In this document: piece after piece, positions 1 through 9,540 of the stretch
Layout: every line of letters starts with the position of its first letter
Numbering within the stretch: the stretch's first letter is position 1
DNA from: Flavobacteriaceae bacterium
Lineage (GTDB): Bacteria > Bacteroidota > Bacteroidia > Flavobacteriales > Flavobacteriaceae
Direction of reading: 5' to 3'
Length of the DNA stretch: 64,000 nucleotides
NCBI GenBank assembly: GCA_037969055.1
Contig: JBBKWR010000119.1
Coordinates: 577 to 64,576, forward strand
Translations under genes and position numbers: made by a program
The notes under the pieces: generated by a model
Databases searched by the model: none
Told to the model about the DNA's origin: nothing
The model's input: the letters and a program-made list of their open reading frames with translations, nothing else

Positions 1-2
1 AA

Positions 3-44
3 GATTTTGATTTATTGCTATTGAATACAACAATTAAAAAATAA
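3..44 (+). CDS. 3' end of an upstream cassette gene (partial, ...DFDLLLLNTTIKK*)
   Basis: Open frame from the window edge to TAA at 42-44, directly followed by the attC-like left boundary ACTACTGCCAAC, as in the other cassettes. Confidence 0.5.
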   Translation, partial: DFDLLLLNTTIKK

Positions 45-63
45 AAAACTACTGCCAACAATG

Positions 64-1788
64 GTAACCGTTGCGCAAGCCATTCAGGCCAAAAAAATGG
101 ATCCATATGAGCCTCTTTACGAGCCTTTTTTCTTGTCAGCTCAGAAGGGGATAGCTAATTTTCGATGCTTTACAGAAGGGCCAAATAGGAATTGAACGGT
201 ACTTTTCACCAATGCTGCCAAAGCAAGCTGTCCTACCCCGCTTTTTATTCGTTTTTGAGTGAATTTCAGGTACTTCTTCAAATTATAGGCAATAGCGGAG
301 AGGTGCATCACCTTATTGGCCTGTTCAATGCCAATAGTATTTATCTTTCTGAGACCCATGAACTGGGTCAACGTTCCGAAAACAGGTTCCACCGTGCTTT
401 GCCGCTTACCTTTCATGTACCTGCCCTGTGGACTGTTGACCCTTGCAATGTTCCGTTCATACTCCGCCCTATAATAGGTAACACTGAACTTCTTCTCCTG
501 GGCGCTCTTGCCCAAACATTGTTCTTGTACCGGGCAACCCACACAAACATGCTTTCTTGCCCGATACTCCTTCTTCCTGGTCTTGGTGCGACTGTCCAAA
601 AACTCCTTGGTAAACGGTATCACCTTGCCTTGGGGGCATAGGTAATGGTCTTCCCCTTCATTGTAGATGAAACCGTCCGGACCACCCTTGTACGTGCCAT
701 GGGGCGGTATAAAGCTCTTTAGACCTTGTTGTTCTAGATAGGCATAGTTCTCTCCGCTACTATAACCCGTATCGGCTACACAGTTTTCAAACATCAAACC
801 TTGTTGCCATAAACGACCTCTTAAGCGTTTTACGATGTCCTGTAATTGTTGGTTGTCCTTGCCGTCGGCATGGTAGGCCCTGATATCCGTTATAACATGA
901 TGGGCGGTGTCAACACTCAACTGTGAGAGATAGTTCAGCTTCCGCGCCTTGCCCGGCTTTACGCTGATACGCGCATCCGGGTCCGTGGGGCTGTAGTGTG
1001 TTTTGTTGCTCGTGTACTTGCTGCCCTTGCTGCCCGCTCCCGGCCGTTGGTCCTGGTCCTTGGCCCATTTCCTGTTCCTGCTTTTTATCGCATCCAGCTC
1101 TTTCTTGTTCGCGGTGACCCCCCGTTGCCCTTCGGGGGCCTTATCCTCCTTGGATCTTCTTATCGGCGTTTTTTTTATCCATTGCACTGATATGCCGAAT
1201 ACTGTGCAGATGGGCCTCCAGGTCTTCCCTGGGGACCTTGAGCTCCAGACTGTCCATACTCGCATTCGCCTTGACAGGGGCCGAATCGATGGCCTGGGTA
1301 TGCCCACTGACCATGCCCTTGTCAACACACATTGAAAGTACTTGGGTAAAAACCTCCTCGAATATGGTCTCCGGGAATAGCTGGCGCGTCCGGCTTATCG
1401 TACTGTGCCAAGGTAGTTCCTCGTCGATATCGTAACCTATGAAGTAAAGGATATCCAGACGCATCGAACAGTGGTCGATCAGCTTGCGGTCGCTGATAAT
1501 GTTCTCCAGATAGCCCACCAGGCACAGTTTGAAGAACACCACCGGGTCGATGCTCTTCTGGCCGCTCTCCCCATAATAATCCCTGGTAAGGGGATAGAGA
1601 AAACCCAGGTCGACGGCACCTTTCAATCGCCTGTAGAAATTAGTATCGGGTACGCGGTCACTTAATTGAAAACTATTGAACAGCTTCTCTTGATAATCCT
1701 TTTTTCCCTGCATACCTAAAGTTACGATCGATCCTTGGATCGGCAATGATCAACAAAGACTTTTTTCGCTAACTTCTGCAACAGGCAC
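64..1788 (-). mobile_element. IS1182-family insertion sequence
   Basis: Transposase plus imperfect terminal IRs GTAACCGTTGCGCAAGC (64-80) and GTGCCTGTTGCAGAAGT (1788-1772); flanked by AATG (60-63) and ATTG (1789-1792), an imperfect 4-bp duplication. Confidence 0.85.
141..1713 (-). pseudogene. IS1182-family DDE transposase, frameshifted in an A8 run (1169-1176)
   Basis: N-terminal frame has SIDP, SDRKLI, PWHSTISRTR and IDSAPVKANAS; C-terminal frame has DPDAR, ADTGYSSGEN and RQSTVEPVFG; removing one A joins them (MDKKTPIRRSK). Confidence 0.85.
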
Positions 1789-1811
1789 ATTGTATAACCG
1801 CAATTACTGCG

Positions 1812-1827
1812 TCCCGAAGCTTCGGGA
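1812..1827. repeat. Perfect 16-bp palindrome TCCCGAAGCTTCGGGA (REP-like) inside repeat A
   Basis: Read directly; related CCCGAAGTACGGG at 43730-43742. Confidence 0.6.
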
Positions 1828-1951
1828 GATTACGTCCGAATCCACTCGGAAATGCTAAAGTCAGTGCTAAACCGAAAATTAACGCATACAAACCCGTAAC
1901 TGACGGTTATACGTATTCCAAGGTCAAATCCTAATATAAATTCAATCATTT

Positions 1952-2944
1952 TTAAGCTGCAAACTGCTGTATTTCAACGTATGGCGTTCCTCTTTTAATT
2001 ACCGAAAAAGCTCTTGCCAAAATCTTATTTCTTACGTTATTTAAAGCCACCATTTTTGGCTTGCCTTCTTCTAATTTTCTTTGGTAATATAATTTGAGTT
2101 CGCTATCACATTGAATGGCACTTACACTTGCTAATGTCAATAAGGTTTTCATCTTTCTATCGCCTATATGATGAACTCTATTCCTTCGTTTTATGCTTGT
2201 ACCGGATTGATACCCAAAAGGTGCTACACCGCAGTAACTCGAAAACTGACGCCAACTCTCAAACTTCTTAAAGTTGTCGGTATGGTAAATCAATTGACAA
2301 GACAATATCAGCCCTACTCCTTTCATGCTGTTAAGTAAATCGTAATTACGTTGACTCGTCTTATGTTCCTTGACTAGCGCTATCATACGTTGCTCGATAG
2401 CATGTATTTGCTTGGTCAGATAGTGAATTGTTTTTTCAATCGTCTTACAACATAAATCTGTTGATGGACTGTTCAATAAGTTCCGTGCTTCTTTAAGTGT
2501 ACTGGTCTTACCTGTTCTATCACGTACCAGCTGTTCTCTGAAAGCTAATAACCTTCCTAGTTCTTGAAGATAGGTTTCTTTAGGACTGCTCAACTTAAGT
2601 TCTTCTTTATGAATCCATGCATATCGTGCTATCATAGCAGCATCTAGGCGGTCCGTTTTACCTCTTACGATTCCGCTTGAACGTTTTATAGCTAATGGAT
2701 TTTCTTCTATATAATCGATAGCATTCTCACTCATAAATACAGCCAAATTAGTAGAGTAATGACCTGTATCTTCAAAACAGAAAAAGTAACCGACCTTTTT
2801 TAAGTGTTGCTCTGTCCATTTTACCAATGCTACATATCCTTTGTAAGTATTGCTAAATAAGCGATGTAGGCCTCTTTTATATAAATGTGCATCTATGGTC
2901 AATTTTGATACATCAATCCCTACTACGTCTTCATATTTTTCCAT
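1952..2944 (-). CDS. IS110-family transposase/recombinase
   Basis: VGIDVSK, FEDTGHY, KTDRLDA (DEDD RuvC-like domain); GVG and YCGVAPFGYQSGTS (catalytic Ser); NNVRNK. Confidence 0.95.
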   Translation of the reverse strand: MEKYEDVVGIDVSKLTIDAHLYKRGLHRLFSNTYKGYVALVKWTEQHLKKVGYFFCFEDTGHYSTNLAVFMSENAIDYIEENPLAIKRSSGIVRGKTDRLDAAMIARYAWIHKEELKLSSPKETYLQELGRLLAFREQLVRDRTGKTSTLKEARNLLNSPSTDLCCKTIEKTIHYLTKQIHAIEQRMIALVKEHKTSQRNYDLLNSMKGVGLILSCQLIYHTDNFKKFESWRQFSSYCGVAPFGYQSGTSIKRRNRVHHIGDRKMKTLLTLASVSAIQCDSELKLYYQRKLEEGKPKMVALNNVRNKILARAFSVIKRGTPYVEIQQFAA

Positions 2945-2997
2945 ATTTTTAAAAGTTGTGACTAATTACATAGTCATGATTTATAAAATGTTGCAAT

Positions 2998-3132
2998 GAC
3001 TATTACCTTTAATAGGAGTTAAATCCTGGTATTCCAAATGGTCCTAAAGCAACCTAAGAAAGACAAGAGGACTGATACGTATAACGGAGCTGTAACTCCA
3101 AAGACCGTTTTAGTTCTCCTCTTGTTTCTTAG
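2998..3132 (-). ncRNA. IS110 bridge RNA (target-binding loop 3054-3132, donor-binding loop 2998-3043)
   Basis: Two stem/internal-loop/stem structures whose loop strands match the target flanks and the predicted circle junction; transcript ends are approximate. Confidence 0.85.
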
Positions 3133-3244
3133 TAAAGTTAACTGACTAGAAAATATACGGTTGTAAAGTAAAGGAGACCGTTGGGTCAAATTGCTTTTCT
3201 GTCCTTCAACAGCCAGCTTCGGGCTGTCGGCGCAGGCCGCACAC

Positions 3245-3367
3245 ATGACACAACAATCGCTAAAAGCAATTTGGCAAGGTTCACTTGTCTTTTAAAAATA
3301 CGCGAATAAATTCACTATTTTTAAAATCCAGAACCTCACTACGTTTAGCGGGGCGTTAGCAAACATT
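3245..3367 (+). repeat. attC-like cassette repeat B
   Basis: ATGACACAAC-AAT-CGCTAAA...TTTAGCG-GGGC-GTTAGCAAACAT, with nested stems AGGTTC/GAACCT and TTTTAAAAATA/TATTTTTAAAA. Confidence 0.8.
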
Positions 3368-3380
3368 AAAAAATAATATT

Positions 3381-4580
3381 ATGAAAAATCTGATCTTATT
3401 TTCTTCTATTATTCTCTTGATTTTTGGATGTCAACAAAATCAAACAAAATCAAGTGATTCAACTTTAAAAACTTATTTTGAATCAAGTTCAATTCCATCA
3501 GCGATTATGGGCAGCATTGATGCAGATGGAAAGACCACCTGGCATCGTTTTGGACCTTCTATTTGGGAAGATTCAACGACAGTGGTTACAGAAGATAATA
3601 TTTTTAGGATTTTTTCTATGACAAAAGCTATTACCTCTGTTGCAGCATTGCAGCTTGTTGAAAAAGGGTTAATAGGATTGGACGATCCATTGAATGAGCT
3701 AATGCCAGAAATGATAGTCATTCCTTTATTAGATGAAGATGGAAACCTAATTCATAGTGATGAAATAATTACTTTGAGACAATTACTAACTCATACATCT
3801 GGGTTTGGCAAAAAGTTCTTTCACTCTAAATTATATAATTTCAATGATGAAAATTGGTCTTACGAAGATCTACCAAGACTTTTTCAGCCAGGTACATCAT
3901 TCGCTTATGGGGACGGTTTAGTTTGGGCTGGCAAAGTTGTCGAAAAAATAAGCAACCAAGATCTGGAAACTTACTTCAGAGAGCATATTACGGGCCCTTT
4001 AAAAATGGATAATACTTGGTATAATGTGCCTAAAAACTTAAGCGAAAATATAGTAACTCTGGGGGGACGTGATTCTTTAGGAATTATTAATACCTGGGCC
4101 CGTATTCCCGAAAAACCTCAAACTGATTATAGTGGAGCTAGTAATCTATTTGCTTCACCAAGTGATTATTTAAAATTTTTGCATTGTATGATGAACTTCG
4201 GAAAGTATGAAGGAGGTCAACTGTTAAAGAAAGAAACAGTACTTCTTATGCTAAAGGATAATTTGCCAATAGGAATTAAAATCCCGAAAATTGAAGAATT
4301 CGATAACGGTGGAATAATTGGGTATACAGGGGATCATTATGTAGGACTAACAAATGACAGATGGGGATTAGCTTGGGCAATAGAAAAGGATGAAAATGAG
4401 ATTCGACCAGTTAATTCTGTTTATTGGGCAGGAGCAGCAAATTCTTATTTTACGTTAGATGTAGAGAATAAAATTGCAATTGTATATTTCTCTAATTACT
4501 TCCCATTTAACGACAAGGAGGCCTATGACTTCTATAAGCTATATGAAAAAGAAGTCTATACAGAAATTATGAATAAATAA
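3381..4580 (+). CDS. Serine hydrolase, beta-lactamase/class C-like family lipoprotein (cassette)
   Basis: Lipobox LIFGC, SxxK motif (FRIFSMTK), LLTHTSG, FAYG, WAGAANSYF. Confidence 0.85.
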   Translation: MKNLILFSSIILLIFGCQQNQTKSSDSTLKTYFESSSIPSAIMGSIDADGKTTWHRFGPSIWEDSTTVVTEDNIFRIFSMTKAITSVAALQLVEKGLIGLDDPLNELMPEMIVIPLLDEDGNLIHSDEIITLRQLLTHTSGFGKKFFHSKLYNFNDENWSYEDLPRLFQPGTSFAYGDGLVWAGKVVEKISNQDLETYFREHITGPLKMDNTWYNVPKNLSENIVTLGGRDSLGIINTWARIPEKPQTDYSGASNLFASPSDYLKFLHCMMNFGKYEGGQLLKKETVLLMLKDNLPIGIKIPKIEEFDNGGIIGYTGDHYVGLTNDRWGLAWAIEKDENEIRPVNSVYWAGAANSYFTLDVENKIAIVYFSNYFPFNDKEAYDFYKLYEKEVYTEIMNK

Positions 4581-4722
4581 CGATGTGCTAACAATGTATA
4601 TAAAAAATAGGCGAAACCGCAATAAAATTAAGGGTTTTGACTCATATAAACTTTCTGCCTAACCGAAAGTTTGGTGCTACGAAATCGCCTACTTTTCATA
4701 TACTAACCGTTAGTGGCAATGC
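4581..4722 (+). repeat. attC-like cassette repeat C
   Basis: GATGTGCTAAC-AAT-GTATATAAAAAATAGGCGA...TCGCCTACTTTTCATATAC-TAACC-GTTAGTGGCAAT; arms 17/19 complementary; inner stem AAACTTTC/GAAAGTTT. Confidence 0.9.
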
Positions 4723-4759
4723 AAAGACGTAGAAAATATTATCAAAGTAACCAGACATT

Positions 4760-6157
4760 ATGAGTCAACCAGAAAACACACCATCTGACAATAATAATAG
4801 AACGCTATCTGCAATAGAACTAAGAGATATACTGCGAAATCCACCCACAGAGTTTATAAAGGAATCACATGGAATAAAAAGCATTCTAATAAGTCGTTAT
4901 ACTATTGAAGACGAACGCCTTATATTAGATAAGAGCATCACAGTAAATTTGCCATTGATTTTTGAGGGTTGCACATTTAAATCTAAAAAGCAGTTTTTTA
5001 TAAGTGGCATAACATGTAATGAATCTTTGATTTTTAATTTCTGTACAATATCCGATTCTATCTACTTCGACAGTGGAACATTCAAAAAAGAGGTCGTGCT
5101 AAAGTATGTGCACGTAAAGTACATTCATTTATCTGACTGCACATTTGATGAAGTTAGTATCTCTGGTTACCACATTGACGAAATCTGGATGTCGGGGAGC
5201 AAATTTGAAAGTTTGAATATAGGTGAACATCTAGTTGGCGACAACATAAGCAAACTCACAATCTTTGCAGAGGAAGATGAAACAGGTGATATTACTGTTA
5301 GGGAACAGGGTTTTGATGAGATACATTTGAGTGGAACAAATAAAGGTAGAACCTTCAATTTTGAGCAAGTGAAATGCGATACTGTTTCAATAATAAATTT
5401 TAAAAATGAAGGCTCATTAAATTTTTTCGGCATCGAACCGAAAGATGTTAACAATGACAAAAGATATTTCCAGATTATCAATAGCAATTTAGACAAAGTT
5501 CAATTTTATAGAGCTCATTTCTCCCAATATAAAGAGCTCATAATTATGGACAGCTTTATTACCGACGCACTGTTTATTGGTTGTAGGTGGAGTAACAATA
5601 TAAGAGCTCTATATGGGCCAGGATATCGCACGTTTAAAGATTCCCTAAAGACTGGGCGCAAGACAACAGATACGGAGATTGTTGCTATTAAGGAAGCTTA
5701 TAGGCAACTCAAAATTTCTATGTCGAAGCATAGTGATAAGATACAGGAACATAAATTCTATTCACAAGAGTTGAATTTTCACAACAAAACATTATCATGG
5801 GAACAACCATGGACAAACCAATTTTGGGATAAAGTTATTTTATTTTTCAGCAAAACCTTTAGTGACTATGGTCAAAGCTTTATAAAACCTTTATGCTGGT
5901 TATTAGTGGGGCATTATATTCTCTTTATACTTGCGTTGCAACTTAACGGATTTGATCCCTTACACATTTCACTTTCAGAACCTACAGCGACAGGTTTTAA
6001 AGAAGCATTTGAAAAGTTTTTTATTTATATAAATCCATTAAGAAGACTGGAAACATCTCTTTCTGGTTATTTAATTCTCTTAGACTTGTTAATGAGAATC
6101 TGGTCATCATATATGATATACAATCTCATTAGGGCATCAAGACGATTCATTTCATAA
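4760..6157 (+). CDS. Pentapeptide-like/beta-solenoid protein with C-terminal membrane domain (cassette)
   Basis: Periodic xxxxF/I repeats, then AYRQLK...SDYGQSFIKPLCWLL and hydrophobic helices. Confidence 0.65.
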   Translation: MSQPENTPSDNNNRTLSAIELRDILRNPPTEFIKESHGIKSILISRYTIEDERLILDKSITVNLPLIFEGCTFKSKKQFFISGITCNESLIFNFCTISDSIYFDSGTFKKEVVLKYVHVKYIHLSDCTFDEVSISGYHIDEIWMSGSKFESLNIGEHLVGDNISKLTIFAEEDETGDITVREQGFDEIHLSGTNKGRTFNFEQVKCDTVSIINFKNEGSLNFFGIEPKDVNNDKRYFQIINSNLDKVQFYRAHFSQYKELIIMDSFITDALFIGCRWSNNIRALYGPGYRTFKDSLKTGRKTTDTEIVAIKEAYRQLKISMSKHSDKIQEHKFYSQELNFHNKTLSWEQPWTNQFWDKVILFFSKTFSDYGQSFIKPLCWLLVGHYILFILALQLNGFDPLHISLSEPTATGFKEAFEKFFIYINPLRRLETSLSGYLILLDLLMRIWSSYMIYNLIRASRRFIS

Positions 6158-6166
6158 CACAAAGTA

Positions 6167-6310
6167 GCACATGCCACTCACAATGGGTATAAAACATAGG
6201 GCGGACTGTGGTTTTCGCAAATTTTGGATTCTTAGTAAACTTAGTCTCGGTGGACAAGTAAACAAACCCGAAATGCCCTACGTTTCATACCCGAGACGTT
6301 ATGTACAAGC
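6167..6310 (+). repeat. attC-like cassette repeat D
   Basis: ATGCCACTCAC-AAT-GGGTATAAAACATAGGGC...GCCCTACGTTTCATACCC-GAGAC-GTTATGTACAA; arms 16/18 complementary. Confidence 0.88.
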
Positions 6311-6393
6311 TCCATTTCCCAATGAATTTGAACAATATCCGACGCCTAAACCAGTTAATTCTATAAATATAGAATAGTCGAAAAGACAACAAT

Positions 6394-6696
6394 ATGGATC
6401 CCAAATTAATACTCCTATTAATTGTTGGAATAGTCGGATGGTTAGTTAAATGGTCCATTTTTAATTGGAAACGAAGGAGACGGAGAAACTATTATCGTAA
6501 TATATACCTTAAATCCGATGCATGGAAAAGGAAGCGTTATGTAGTTCTAAAACGTGACAATTGGAAATGTGTTTACTGTGGTAATCGTGCAACTCAAGTA
6601 CATCATAAAAGATATGCTAAAAAAAACATAGGACGAGAACCTATTAAATGGTTGGTCTCGATATGTAAAACTTGTCATGATAATCGACATATATAA
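6394..6696 (+). CDS. Small HNH endonuclease-like protein with N-terminal TM helix (cassette)
   Basis: VLKRDNWKCVYCG, QVHH, LVSICKTCH; hydrophobic N-terminus. Confidence 0.8.
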   Translation: MDPKLILLLIVGIVGWLVKWSIFNWKRRRRRNYYRNIYLKSDAWKRKRYVVLKRDNWKCVYCGNRATQVHHKRYAKKNIGREPIKWLVSICKTCHDNRHI

Positions 6697-6700
6697 AATA

Positions 6701-6748
6701 AGCCATGCACATCAATGGCAATAAGTAATTGCTATGTTCTAGCCTACA
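6701..6748 (+). repeat. Degenerate/truncated cassette repeat E (left part only)
   Basis: GCCATGCACATC-AAT-GGCAATAAGTAATTGC directly after the HNH stop codon; partly complementary to the cassette start GTTATGTACAAGC; no right arm found. Confidence 0.5.
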
Positions 6749-6835
6749 CAAGTATATTAATCGTAATCAGACTTTTGCCCCCAATTCCCATACCTAAAAG
6801 CTTTACACTAAAACCCAAGTAGGTCCGTTATTTAA

Positions 6836-7090
6836 TTGATGGATAACGTTATCAGAAATATCTTACCCAAATATTCAAGAGTATTTGGTTTTGTCCTCAC
6901 GTTCTTGATCTTCACCTCACATATTCCTGTTGATTTTTCCAATGTGTATATATGCAAGGGAAAGTACAGTAAGAAATATCATTACAGTAAGTCTTGTAGA
7001 GGATTGTCCAATTGCTCAACCAAAGTATACGAAGTAGAATTAAGTGAGGCCAAAAGGATAGGTAGGACCCTTTGTGGTTGGGAGGATTAG
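6836..7090 (+). CDS. Small Cys/His-rich putative metal-binding exported protein
   Basis: Hydrophobic N-terminus, then VYIC...YH...C..L..C...GRTLC; convergent with the integrase. Confidence 0.65.
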   Translation: MMDNVIRNILPKYSRVFGFVLTFLIFTSHIPVDFSNVYICKGKYSKKYHYSKSCRGLSNCSTKVYEVELSEAKRIGRTLCGWED

Positions 7091-7093
7091 CCA

Positions 7094-8812
7094 TTATTTA
7101 TTCTTAAGAAATCCAAATGGTTTTTTTATCAAGTTATAATCAAACGTTTCCACATCCGAATACTTACTAAACTCTGTTTTCATCCTATGATATATCTTTA
7201 ATGGTTGTTTTCCGAAGTCTTTCAAAAAGTACTCCTTTTTGGAGCCTAAATCCAATGCACCATAATATCTTGACCCTATCATAAATTCCATTGGGGGTAT
7301 GGGTATATAGAACTCTATTTTTATTTTTAGAGGTACTGCGTGGTAGTCAATTGTTATTCTTTTGATGTACTTTGCCACCATTGCTGATTTTTCCTCAAAA
7401 GGTAAGTTTTCAATTATGGTTTTTTTATTTTCCGCAAGCACCCTATTTTTTACTATTTTTTGCATGCTAGCATCAAAGTACTCCTTTATGAAAGGGTCTG
7501 ATAAATCTACCCATTGCTCGAACAGATTGAATTTAAAGTCATTTTCTAACTCTACTAGTACCCTATTGCCATTTACAAGCTTTTCTAGTTCGACAGCTAT
7601 TTCCCGAAGTGTTTCATCGGTTTTATAAGCTTGGTCATCTATCCTTTTTTTCTCAGCTCTATACGTTCCTATATAACCCCCCTCCTTAACAAATAGCTGA
7701 TGGTTTCTTTTTGTTTCTATCTTTAGCTGTTCATGCTTCTTTAAGTGGTACTCCTGTTTTTTCTCCAGTACTTTCTTTTGCCCTGTATTTCCCCCCGCCT
7801 GATAGGTTTGCTTTGCTTGCTCGTACAGTTCTTGACCAAGGAGTATTTTCTCAAAAATAAGCTTATCTATTGCCCAAGCCCTAACGGCTTTACTTCCGCA
7901 TTTTGGTATACCTCTATTTACTTCGCTCAAGCACCTGTAGTAAGAATGTCTATGCCTTTGTGAAACGGTATACCGTGTACCACATTTAGCACAAAACATA
8001 ACCTCATTTAAAATATACTTTTTTGATTTGCTCCCAGGTTTTTTGTACCTCTTCCCGATGCTTTCAATTACCTTATCGTGTGTATGCTTATCGATTATGG
8101 GGGGGACTACTTCTAATTCTAATTCATTGTGCTTTACCCTTCCTGAATAGGTTTTATTATATATCATATACCTAATGGTTGCAGGAGTCCATTCGATATC
8201 GTACCGTGTTTCAATACCCATTTCGTTGAGATGTTTAGCAATCCTTATATATCCGTATCCTTTTTGGTACAAATCAAAGATGGTTTTAACTGTCTCTAAT
8301 TCCCCAGGATGTATTTTCCATTTGCCTTTATCGTCCGTGGTGTAACCATAGGGGGTTAAGCCATGGGGAATTCCCTCCATTGCATTACGTCTTAGTACTG
8401 TTTGTATCTTCTTAGCTGTTATACGGGCAAAATGTGCGTCCATCCCCGCTTTTATCGTGTAGAATAGGTACGTGTTTTCATCGCTGAAATCATTTTCTAC
8501 ACCGTTATCGTACAGTAAAGTACCTGTTTCCCGTAAAAGGTCGGCAAATGTATGCCATGATATTTCATTTCGTGCCAGTCGGGAACTATCCCATATAAAC
8601 ACCCCTTTAATTTCCTTTTTCCTAATATCAATTAGCAATTCGGCAAATTTGGGTCGTTGTTCCTCGGACTTTTGACCGCTGATTATTCCCTCATCGTAAA
8701 ATTTATATGACATTTCTTTGTCGAGGGCGAACTCCTGACCTAGCAACCGTTGCTCTTTTAGACTCTTCTCCTTTGCCCTGTCCCTGCTCTTTCGGATGTA
8801 TATTGCTAACAT
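7094..8812 (-). CDS. Large serine recombinase (integrase)
   Basis: YIRKS catalytic motif, DSSRLARN, PYGY recombinase domain, Zn ribbon (CAKCG...YYRC...C), coiled coil. Confidence 0.93.
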   Translation of the reverse strand: MLAIYIRKSRDRAKEKSLKEQRLLGQEFALDKEMSYKFYDEGIISGQKSEEQRPKFAELLIDIRKKEIKGVFIWDSSRLARNEISWHTFADLLRETGTLLYDNGVENDFSDENTYLFYTIKAGMDAHFARITAKKIQTVLRRNAMEGIPHGLTPYGYTTDDKGKWKIHPGELETVKTIFDLYQKGYGYIRIAKHLNEMGIETRYDIEWTPATIRYMIYNKTYSGRVKHNELELEVVPPIIDKHTHDKVIESIGKRYKKPGSKSKKYILNEVMFCAKCGTRYTVSQRHRHSYYRCLSEVNRGIPKCGSKAVRAWAIDKLIFEKILLGQELYEQAKQTYQAGGNTGQKKVLEKKQEYHLKKHEQLKIETKRNHQLFVKEGGYIGTYRAEKKRIDDQAYKTDETLREIAVELEKLVNGNRVLVELENDFKFNLFEQWVDLSDPFIKEYFDASMQKIVKNRVLAENKKTIIENLPFEEKSAMVAKYIKRITIDYHAVPLKIKIEFYIPIPPMEFMIGSRYYGALDLGSKKEYFLKDFGKQPLKIYHRMKTEFSKYSDVETFDYNLIKKPFGFLKNK

Positions 8813-8831
8813 AGATTAAGTATTGAAAAAA

Positions 8832-8839
8832 CAAAGTTA
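8832..8839 (-). promoter_or_regulatory. Bacteroidota -7 element (TAACTTTG) for the integrase
   Basis: Matches TAnnTTTG, about 20 nt upstream of the ATG. Confidence 0.6.
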
Positions 8840-8850
8840 CATAATTCATG

Positions 8851-9417
8851 TTAGCCACTCCAATGGTTCCATTGCGGTCTACCATCCAACATTTTGTTCA
8901 TCGGTAGCCCATTGATCAATACTTCTCCATAACGCCCATCATAGCCCCGTACCCGAAAAAAAGCCTGTCCAAAATCGAATGCTGCGCGTTTTAAAAACAC
9001 ATCCCTCGTGGCCTGGAGCAAACCTGTATGCACCGAAGCGCCAACGACTTCGTCTAATTCTGAATCGGTCAGGGTAATCAGGTTATCATGCTGCTCCAGA
9101 ACAATATCCTTTTCAAGAAGGATCAACCCCAAAAGTAAGGTGTCATTTTCAAAACGTACCGGCATCCGTTTGGCAAGGTACTCGGGCGCGGAAATGTTTA
9201 AAATAAAGGCGCCCCAACTATCGGCATCAAGTATGAAAGTCCCATCTGCGTTTGGTTCTACAGTAAGGGTGGTTTCTTCCACTGCAACGATACCGTTTGC
9301 CACAGCTTTTTTTGTGCGTGCATCCACTATGGTTCCTTGCACCACCGAATAACTTTGACCTAGCAGGGATGAAAGTAAAAAGAAGAAAAAATATGTAAAA
9401 TATAGAAAACGCATTTT
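8851..9417 (-). pseudogene. 5' fragment of a TonB-dependent receptor (carboxypeptidase-regulatory-like domain plus start of plug), interrupted by the element
   Basis: Signal peptide, VQGTIVDA, FFRVRGYD...VLING..MNK..DGRPQW; stops at the element boundary with no beta-barrel. Confidence 0.8.
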
Positions 9418-9540
9418 ATCAAATGGTGTTGGTAACGAATTTTTCAAATTTAAATGGGCAACCTGCACAACACTTGCAGCAATGAAAATTAAATTGCGGC
9501 ATTTTCCATCGTGGGGACCAATTCAACGATTTTAGACGTG

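Follow-up and report, generated by a model that had tools for sequence, protein, structure and literature searches.

An integron-like cassette array in a Flavobacteriaceae genome, kin to the rAID-1 arrays

Four short units stand in a row near one end of a contig from a Flavobacteriaceae bacterium, each closed by a repeat, and the question they raise is whether they were excised and inserted as circles, in the manner of integron cassettes, and by which enzyme. The stretch analysed here, called the window, comprises 64,000 nucleotides, positions 577 to 64,576 of contig JBBKWR010000119.1 (G000:C119), in a fragmented genome assembly of 3.7 Mb that is 85% complete. An earlier note on this DNA had claimed that the start of each unit is complementary to its own end. 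We conclude that the array behaves as an integron would without being one, and we put at about 75% the reading that the units move as circles, carried by a tyrosine recombinase of the Bacteroidota that acts in trans and is predicted to work on the folded bottom strand of each site, at a GTT triplet. The system is integron-like and kin of the rAID-1 arrays, and the window holds one small, partly decayed array.

Complementarity of cassette starts and ends

The array is read on the forward strand. Cassette 1 (3180..3354) is gene-less and includes site R1 (3252..3357, 106 bases from AAC to GTT, left core at 3252), with a detector score of 34 and a fold z of -3.5 on the bottom and -2.5 on the top strand. 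Cassette 2 (3355..4708) joins an open reading frame (ORF) at 3381-4580, encoding a 399-aa serine hydrolase of beta-lactamase fold with a lipoprotein-like N-terminus (PF00144), to site R2 (4590..4711, 122 bases), recognised by both detector and fold. Cassette 3 (4709..6297) carries an ORF (4760-6157) for a 465-aa protein without a Pfam or NCBIfam family and without a match among 400 genomes of the family, followed by site R3 (6179..6300, 122 bases), whose left core is CAC instead of AAC. Cassette 4 (6298..6847) encodes a 100-aa HNH-family protein (ORF 6394-6696; PF01844 just below cut-off) and closes with the decayed site R4 (6706..6850), the distal array end, where the core is shortened, the fold is not significant (z -0.2) and the detector finds nothing. 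GC content in the three cassette ORFs is 33-34%, against 42% for the genome. The last ORF (6836-7090) was considered as a further cassette and rejected.

For the pairing score, the 7 bases after each GTT were set against the 7 bases ahead of each left core, the latter taken as reverse complement. The four units of the window self-pair at 5, 5, 7 and 3 of 7 (total 20), the single best among 24 assignments (p = 1/24), and all eight motif positions given in the earlier note hold. Relatives carry complementary bases where the window has mismatches, and we therefore read those mismatches as local decay. G4585, the mismatch of pair 2, is a complementary T in G188 and in contigs of runs X2, X3, X5, X6 and X7; the CAC core of pair 3 is specific to the window, a relative of cassette 3 showing an intact AAC and 10/10 pairing. 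Pair 4 scores 3/7 ungapped and 6/7 if the AA of the AAC core is read as lost. In G374 a relative of this HNH cassette, 86% identical at the protein level, has kept its end intact; that end pairs 6/7 with the start of cassette 4 in the window, and the window's own end resembles that of G374 minus the same AA.

The site detector was built from cores and inner arms only. In the window it finds R1-R3 and nothing else, and genome-wide it returns 62 sites in real against about 55 in shuffled sequence at score 22, 18 against about 4 at score 33, and 8 against 0 at score 40. In 101 units between adjacent sites, taken from 20 loci of relatives (20-kb, behind a recombinase), self pairing averages 6.08/7 and pairing within the same repeat 2.50, self being better in 92, tied in 5 and worse in 4. 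Shuffled partners reach 2.52 and partners shuffled within arrays 2.88, with 0/20000 shuffles attaining the self value in either test; because shuffles were also done within arrays, shared composition is controlled. Of 80 further loci, both recombinase ends were placed in 76, and the 133 distinct units from these give 6.19/7 against 2.48 for the same repeat and 2.52 for shuffles (maximum 2.97 in 5000). Some genomes may be common to both sets, and related units do not count as independent. The window's own genome, at a stricter threshold, offers a weak test of 7 units only, with self values of 6, 1, 6, 5, 7, 5 and 1 against same-repeat values of 5, 0, 1, 1, 2, 3 and 0. Permutation of the kind that the earlier note had proposed thus bears out its claim of complementary ends, in the window and in both larger sets, together with its observation that the bases after each GTT match the left boundary of the next repeat better than that of their own.

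Self-pairing reaches about 14 bases, well beyond the 7-base core. Identity per position in the 101 units is 0.86-0.93 at positions 4-9, 0.68 at 10, 0.03 at 11 and 0.74-0.82 at 12-14; at position 11 the start has A in 97 units and the end G in 84, which makes a G.T pair on the bottom strand.

Cassette 1 is a deletion derivative of a longer gene-less cassette family, about 85 bp shorter than its relatives, and a full-length relative lies directly behind an attI-like site in G006. Inside the full-length gene-less cassettes (L221, L223, L226, L227, L229, L234 and L237) there is an inverted copy of their own start together with part of the right arm of their own site, the reverse complement of a junction that exists only in a circle or a tandem copy. 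Start and inverted copy agree at 11-13 of 14 bases in seven of the nine loci with a copy, and they covary.

Cassette borders, crossover point and site structure

Cassettes 2 and 3 were both found next to different neighbours elsewhere, with the same borders. A cassette 2 in G188 is 85% identical end to end and has both neighbours different; identity starts one base before the GTT, and both ends of the site are kept around a different middle. In runs X2, X3, X5 and X6 (one study) an attI-like site is immediately followed by a copy of cassette 2 that is >99% identical and starts at the equivalent of 3355, and the palindrome preceding it is the one that stands behind the recombinase gene in G001 and many others. 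The X3 and X6 contigs continue from this cassette through R2 into a different cassette, and there, as in G188, the site body moves with the upstream cassette. Among other cassette 2 copies identity begins at or one base before the GTT, whether a repeat or an attI-like site precedes. Cassette 3 has a metagenome relative (77% aa) that shares its start, keeps the complementary end intact and lies between other neighbours. Among 12 relatives of the HNH protein the left arm is recognisable after the gene in 3 and a complete site pair in none.

Repeats have a C just before the GTT, whereas docking sites mostly have a T there (49/67), which places the crossover within the GTT. Identity in cassette 2 starts at this triplet whatever precedes it, and the repeats are therefore recombination sites and not simply terminators, as the earlier note had argued. 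The partner of each start is internal to the unit, about 120 bases from the right end, and the two therefore meet only in a closed circle. The four units were thus likely excised and inserted as circles; this part of the earlier proposal is supported by the borders and by the internal partner, although no circle was found in contigs, and the likeness to integrons stops short of a classical one. A loose end in run X1 was tried as the circle junction of cassette 1 and rejected, being the undeleted allele.

The anatomy of the sites was compiled for 110 of them. Their length from AAC to GTT is 44-210 bases, with 67 sites at 120-129 and 32 at 180-199. The stem is paired, with G.T pairs at two fixed places, and 3-4 unpaired spacer bases on the left arm face 5-7 on the right. 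Bulges are scattered over many positions (10 on the left arm and 26 on the right) with no fixed extrahelical base; GTTRRRY occurs in 11/110 sites and RYYYAAC in 15/110, the AAC and GTT triplets alone being fixed. In classical attC sites, as described, the cores read RYYYAAC/GTTRRRY and the I2 region makes contact with extrahelical bases (PMC3053210). The bottom strand folds better than the top in 76/86 sites in array form and in 83/86 circle forms, at a mean bottom-strand energy of -23.3 kcal/mol in the array and -28.9 in the circle form. G.T pairs share this bias: in the inner stem, under strand-neutral detection, 97 fall on the bottom and 8 on the top strand (103 sites), and in the outer stem 88 and 2 (87 circles). 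A generic repeat finder did not pick up the R sites of the window, and Rfam returned no family at gathering score in the window, with three chance matches at E 2-7.

A candidate recombinase and the competing explanations

Thirteen matches to tyrosine recombinases are present in the genome. Two of them, the intact C422 (375 aa) and the frameshifted C245, belong to one family; an attI-like site stands behind each, and the first cassette behind C245 pairs 7/7. C422 matches NF040815 above cut-off and TIGR02249 not, and is nearest to XerA by sequence and fold, 4a8e being the top structure match for the predicted, alignment-based model (predicted local distance difference test, pLDDT, 84.7). Its alignment with VchIntIA falls into two blocks, between which it has 22 residues where VchIntIA has 65; the IntI insertion is missing. 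There is an extra N-terminal domain of 80 residues without a Pfam match. All catalytic residues are invariant among 32 family members. Records of Maribacter, Arenibacter, Eudoraea and Cellulophaga supply the closest recombinases (80-84% identity). Relatives occur in 34/60 near genomes and in 88/250 sampled Bacteroidota genomes.

Over 76 loci, 197 family sites lie downstream of the recombinase on the gene's strand (292 kb), 1 lies upstream (538 kb) and 0 are on the other strand. The docking GTT stands 43-55 bases past the recombinase stop, behind a short conserved palindrome, in 67/77 loci, and first cassettes behind the attI-like site self-pair at 6.36/7 (42 units). A functional analogue of attI is thus present at the 3' end of the recombinase gene, on other contigs than the window's. 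For 19 loci behind more distant recombinases the detector recognised arrays in 2, one or two sites in 8 and none in 9, and arrays are therefore not demonstrated for most of the distant members. At C422 a five-fold tandem repeat of 6 bases lies between the recombinase stop and the attI-like site (G000:C422 300-353), and a transposase-like remnant, not a cassette, follows the GTT. A 126-aa Cys-rich protein without an NCBIfam family is encoded divergently upstream of the recombinase at L002:1545-1925, and likewise in G001 and G004.

In the mechanism that we propose, closure of the circle would join the right arm of a site to the unit's own start and complete an outer stem of about 14 bp. Recombinase monomers would bind two similar boxes of 13-14 bases flanking the unpaired spacer, each box carrying a G.T pair at a fixed place, and the enzyme would act at the GTT of the site's folded bottom strand. 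The attI-like site would be the point of entry for new cassettes or, as in the window, a secondary site far from the recombinase gene. Circles, single-strand chemistry and action in trans on the window array are what we infer here. If true, folded single-strand cassette recombination needs neither the IntI insertion nor extrahelical bases, and the joint loss of bulges and insertion would be consistent with co-evolution of the two.

Several results weigh against this mechanism. The window's contig has no recombinase of the C422 family, and the link from the array to C422 and C245 runs through the attI-like site of a near-identical cassette 2 in other samples. No circle junction or back-joint appeared in contigs of X1, X2, X3, X5, X6, X7 and X20, contigs being prone to drop rare forms. 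The complete genome G014 has a 12-site array (L219 = G014:C1:2830000-2849999) with no recombinase match there or genome-wide at 1e-40. Among 60 relatives, 25 have both recombinase and sites, 9 the recombinase only, 6 sites only and 20 neither, but this co-occurrence is confounded by family, and within the family (24/8/3/1) it is uninformative. The N-terminal domain has its best fold matches in UvsW (Z 6.9, a level below the tool's reliable range; root-mean-square deviation 2.2, 63 aligned) and in the N-terminal domains of XPB (Z 6.0-6.2), and a profile search of solved structures gave nothing for it. We take the UvsW and XPB domains to be DNA-junction binding domains, and judging from the structural model the 80 residues may stand in for the IntI insertion. 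On resistance plasmids, discussed below, the blaOXA units of two plasmids do not self-pair (0/7 and 1/7). Finally, the G.T bias falls mainly on fixed positions, as it could if a protein recognised the duplex DNA asymmetrically.

This last point leads to the rival that survives best, which we nevertheless regard as unlikely: the same cassettes and recombinase, with recombination of double-stranded DNA as at Xer/dif or pdif sites and the inverted arms acting as repeated binding boxes. An enzyme nearest XerA, without the insertion that IntI needs for folded substrates, and sites without a conserved extrahelical base would suit it well. Against it, the paired arms lie 44-210 bases apart around an unrelated middle, the start has its partner within the unit, the mismatches are bottom-strand G.T pairs (97:8 and 88:2), and the outer-stem bases vary freely yet in step, which duplex recognition does not predict.

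It is more improbable still that these are ordinary attC sites in an attC cluster without an integron-integrase (CALIN), moved by a classical IntI that either escaped the 85%-complete assembly or comes from another cell. AAC/GTT cores, the bottom-strand fold and single-gene cassettes would fit, and HattCI called a member of this site family attC in Polaribacter phage P12002L (PMC9892861). However, no match above the TIGR02249 cut-off was found in the genome, the arrays of relatives start behind a recombinase other than IntI, and neither the attC consensus nor the extrahelical bases are present. The phage site, published as P12002L_attC1, belongs to the family described here (detector score 44) and is, in the available text of that paper, the only one of six sites without verified IntI1 junctions (PMC9892861); attC2, which did recombine with IntI1 (PMC9892861), is absent from the 10 family sites detected in the phage. 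IntegronFinder 2.0 reports almost no integrons in Bacteroidetes, with one complete integron in Bacteroidetes proper (PMC9024848). At L085:30009-40948 of the phage, eight family sites stand on one strand and the genes on the opposite, some small ORFs lying in the variable middle of a site.

Only marginally likely at best are linear elements with terminal inverted repeats, similar to transposons or miniature inverted-repeat transposable elements, moved without a circle by a transposase or the neighbouring serine recombinase. Start and end are indeed mutually inverted, and a serine recombinase and two insertion sequence (IS) elements adjoin; but the site body to the right of the supposed end travels with the gene, so the inverted partner is internal, the borders are without target duplication, arrays elsewhere stand behind a tyrosine recombinase and the serine recombinase marks an island edge. 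That the repeats are terminators or resemble repetitive extragenic palindromes, pairing by chance, is hardly tenable: they come after stop codons and fold, but 0/20000 and 0/5000 shuffles reach the observed pairing, which refutes the idea unless a detector using inner arms and cores only leaks outer-arm information, and the borders are exactly kept while neighbours change, with no Rfam family.

Single-strand recombination of circular cassettes, our preferred reading, brings the array close to integrons as described (PMC3053210, PMC8618304, PMC9024848). Shared features are single-gene cassettes, AAC/GTT cores, crossover at the GTT, self-complementary ends, a bottom-strand fold, an unpaired spacer, a variable middle, a docking site by the recombinase gene and arrays without an integrase. 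The array differs from those descriptions in that the recombinase has the extra N-terminal domain, and its gene is co-oriented with the array and has the docking site at its 3' end. Because no IntI was found, the insertion is absent, GTTRRRY and RYYYAAC are rarely present, with no fixed extrahelical bases, and self-pairing extends beyond the 7-base core to about 14 bases, it is not a classical integron. An 'integron-like' subgroup with incomplete conservation of the insertion has been noted by Smyshlyaev et al. (PMC8138268).

Among described systems rAID-1 of gut Bacteroidales comes nearest: co-oriented genes of low GC stand behind an XerD-like recombinase, and motifs 'reminiscent of integrons' are repeated between them (bioRxiv 10.1101/471110). 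As far as the available descriptions go, it is known only in Bacteroidales and for immunity genes, and they define no crossover point, circle or attI (bioRxiv 10.1101/471110; PMC12247911); how rAIDs arise is still treated as open in a paper of 2025 (PMC12247911). A Bacteroides ovatus recombinase heading an immunity array is 43% identical to C422 over 330 aa, and the published threshold, >44% for a recombinase at the 5' end, refers to another protein, BF9343_RS08045. Membership further requires at least two co-oriented genes of GC <=41%, and three ORFs of 33-34% are present here. With regard to the intergenic motifs, the B. ovatus locus has the same layout and self-pairs at 5.2 against 3.2 (1/20000 shuffles; 10 of 11 units scored, one without a left boundary). 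Its sites are 40-47 bases long, start with ATT and have a 2-base bulge, whereas those described here are mostly 120-125 or 180-190 bases and start with GTT, and our detector does not recognise the B. ovatus sites. The cargo is also different, orphan immunity genes of Bacteroidales there and a mixture of hydrolase, protein without a family and HNH protein in a Flavobacteriaceae-like host here, and no recombinase adjoins the window array. A literature search, with most subscription journals outside it, found nothing mapping these sites, naming tet(X) a cassette or testing the recombinase.

On balance we lean towards a wider reading, in which a second integron-type system, overlooked by integron finders, would operate throughout the Bacteroidota. 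Circular cassettes would move via bulge-free, folded single-strand sites by the action of a XerA-like recombinase that has no IntI insertion and uses an N-terminal DNA-junction domain; rAID-1 would be the gut branch, tet(X), estT, erm(F), ere(D), catB, aadS and blaMYO-1 would be cassettes, and TnpF beside tet(X5) in Acinetobacter would be a truncated recombinase still followed by its docking site. What the window adds is the exact mapping of borders and two IS families aimed at the sites. The system provides a defined unit, a crossover point and a candidate enzyme for how rAID arrays are built (PMC12247911), and the same for the formation of Riemerella resistance clusters without a visible mobile element (PMC10846147), from a recombinase family present in 88 of the 250 genomes sampled from a phylum thought nearly integron-free (PMC9024848).

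Insertion elements, the island and resistance plasmids

The first site of the array, R0, is now in three pieces on the forward strand. Its left end, which is the end of the previous cassette (53..63, AAC core at 57-59 and 4-base spacer at 60-63), is severed by an IS1182-family element and is uninterrupted on one contig of run X20; its body (1789..1912) has inverted inner arms around a variable middle, and its right end (3174..3182) supplies the crossover GTT at 3180. The R0 subtype is present intact in arrays of G001 and G027. The IS1182-family element lies in the left spacer (64..1788, reverse strand), with a transposase in two frames, 1141-1746 and 141-1328 (Pfam DUF772/DDE_Tnp_1_6; NF033551 below cut-off for the N-terminal piece), and a target duplication that is likely 4 bases, with one mismatch in the window. 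Among the flanks listed, IS1182 stands at a fixed position of the site in 7/7 N-side and 7/7 C-side cases. Its ends mimic the cores, with CAC on one side and CCGTT on the other, in the window (64-1788) and in C60, C339, C424, L044, L089, L103 and L139.

The right arm of R0 is interrupted by an IS110-family element (1913..3173, reverse strand; transposase 1952-2944, NF033542 above cut-off), and an X20 contig joining 1912 to 3174 preserves its empty site. A predicted target-binding loop of a bridge RNA (3078..3109, reverse strand) contains two 8-base segments, 3078-3085 and 3102-3109, which match both halves of the insertion point on opposite strands within a hairpin of -29.3 kcal/mol; the rough chance of finding both 8-mers in the 229-base leader is 5e-5, and the loop layout is as in PMC11208160. 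Going by sequence, this element has the features of a bridge-RNA element, with a DEDD transposase and a non-coding end whose guides, in a predicted RNA, match the target. The attC-targeting IS1111/IS110 elements (PMC11208160) likewise place an IS110 in a cassette site by two guides on opposite strands; here the target is a Bacteroidota site family, at which IS1182 aims as well, at its fixed position. A second, distant IS110 lies in the left spacer of a site at G000:C339 ~2780-3100, its leader segments matching that end by eye, with a guide that differs from the window's and targets the same site family.

The array is part of a low-GC island, bases 1-8850, whose right edge is a large serine recombinase (7094..8812, reverse strand; Pfam Resolvase/Recombinase/Zn ribbon). 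The island breaks a conserved gene of ~690 aa at about 8852, at codon ~205 (window 8851-9468); the gene is uninterrupted in relatives. The serine recombinase probably moves the island and not the cassettes. Just before the window, at G000:C119:362-385, the left arm of a site passes directly into the following ORF and the body is absent, so that two cassettes are fused at a collapsed site.

Near copies of R2 (87%) are carried by two Riemerella plasmids (after estT) and one Myroides plasmid (after blaOXA), and nine of the 11 units scored on resistance plasmids self-pair at 5-7/7: catB, estT, erm(F), ere(D), aadS, blaMYO-1, GNAT, a MarR unit and a small two-gene unit. The start of tet(X) on an Acinetobacter plasmid pairs 7/7 with the end of tet(X) on a Riemerella plasmid, and is preceded by truncated TnpF and the palindrome in A. 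baumannii and by a repeat in Riemerella. As these nine units self-pair and the tet(X) start and end match across the two plasmids, surveillance could look for these sites. Riemerella resistance clusters have been described without known mobile elements (PMC10846147), and tnpF is listed beside ermF and tet(X) (PMC8693923).

At L168:4516-6537 (NZ_CP044520) an attI-like palindrome and tet(X5) come after an N-terminally truncated recombinase that is 54% identical to C422 residues 143-375. The truncated recombinase is annotated TnpF on plasmid FJ012881, and 50 Acinetobacter plasmid records match the recombinase query. On L166:1774-14705 (NZ_CP072192) erm(F), ere(D) and catB run antiparallel to their own cassette borders, unlike most cassettes. 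On a Chryseobacterium plasmid (L169:16266-20048, NZ_CP041688) the genes downstream of the recombinase are split by two insertions, an IS110 and a group II intron.

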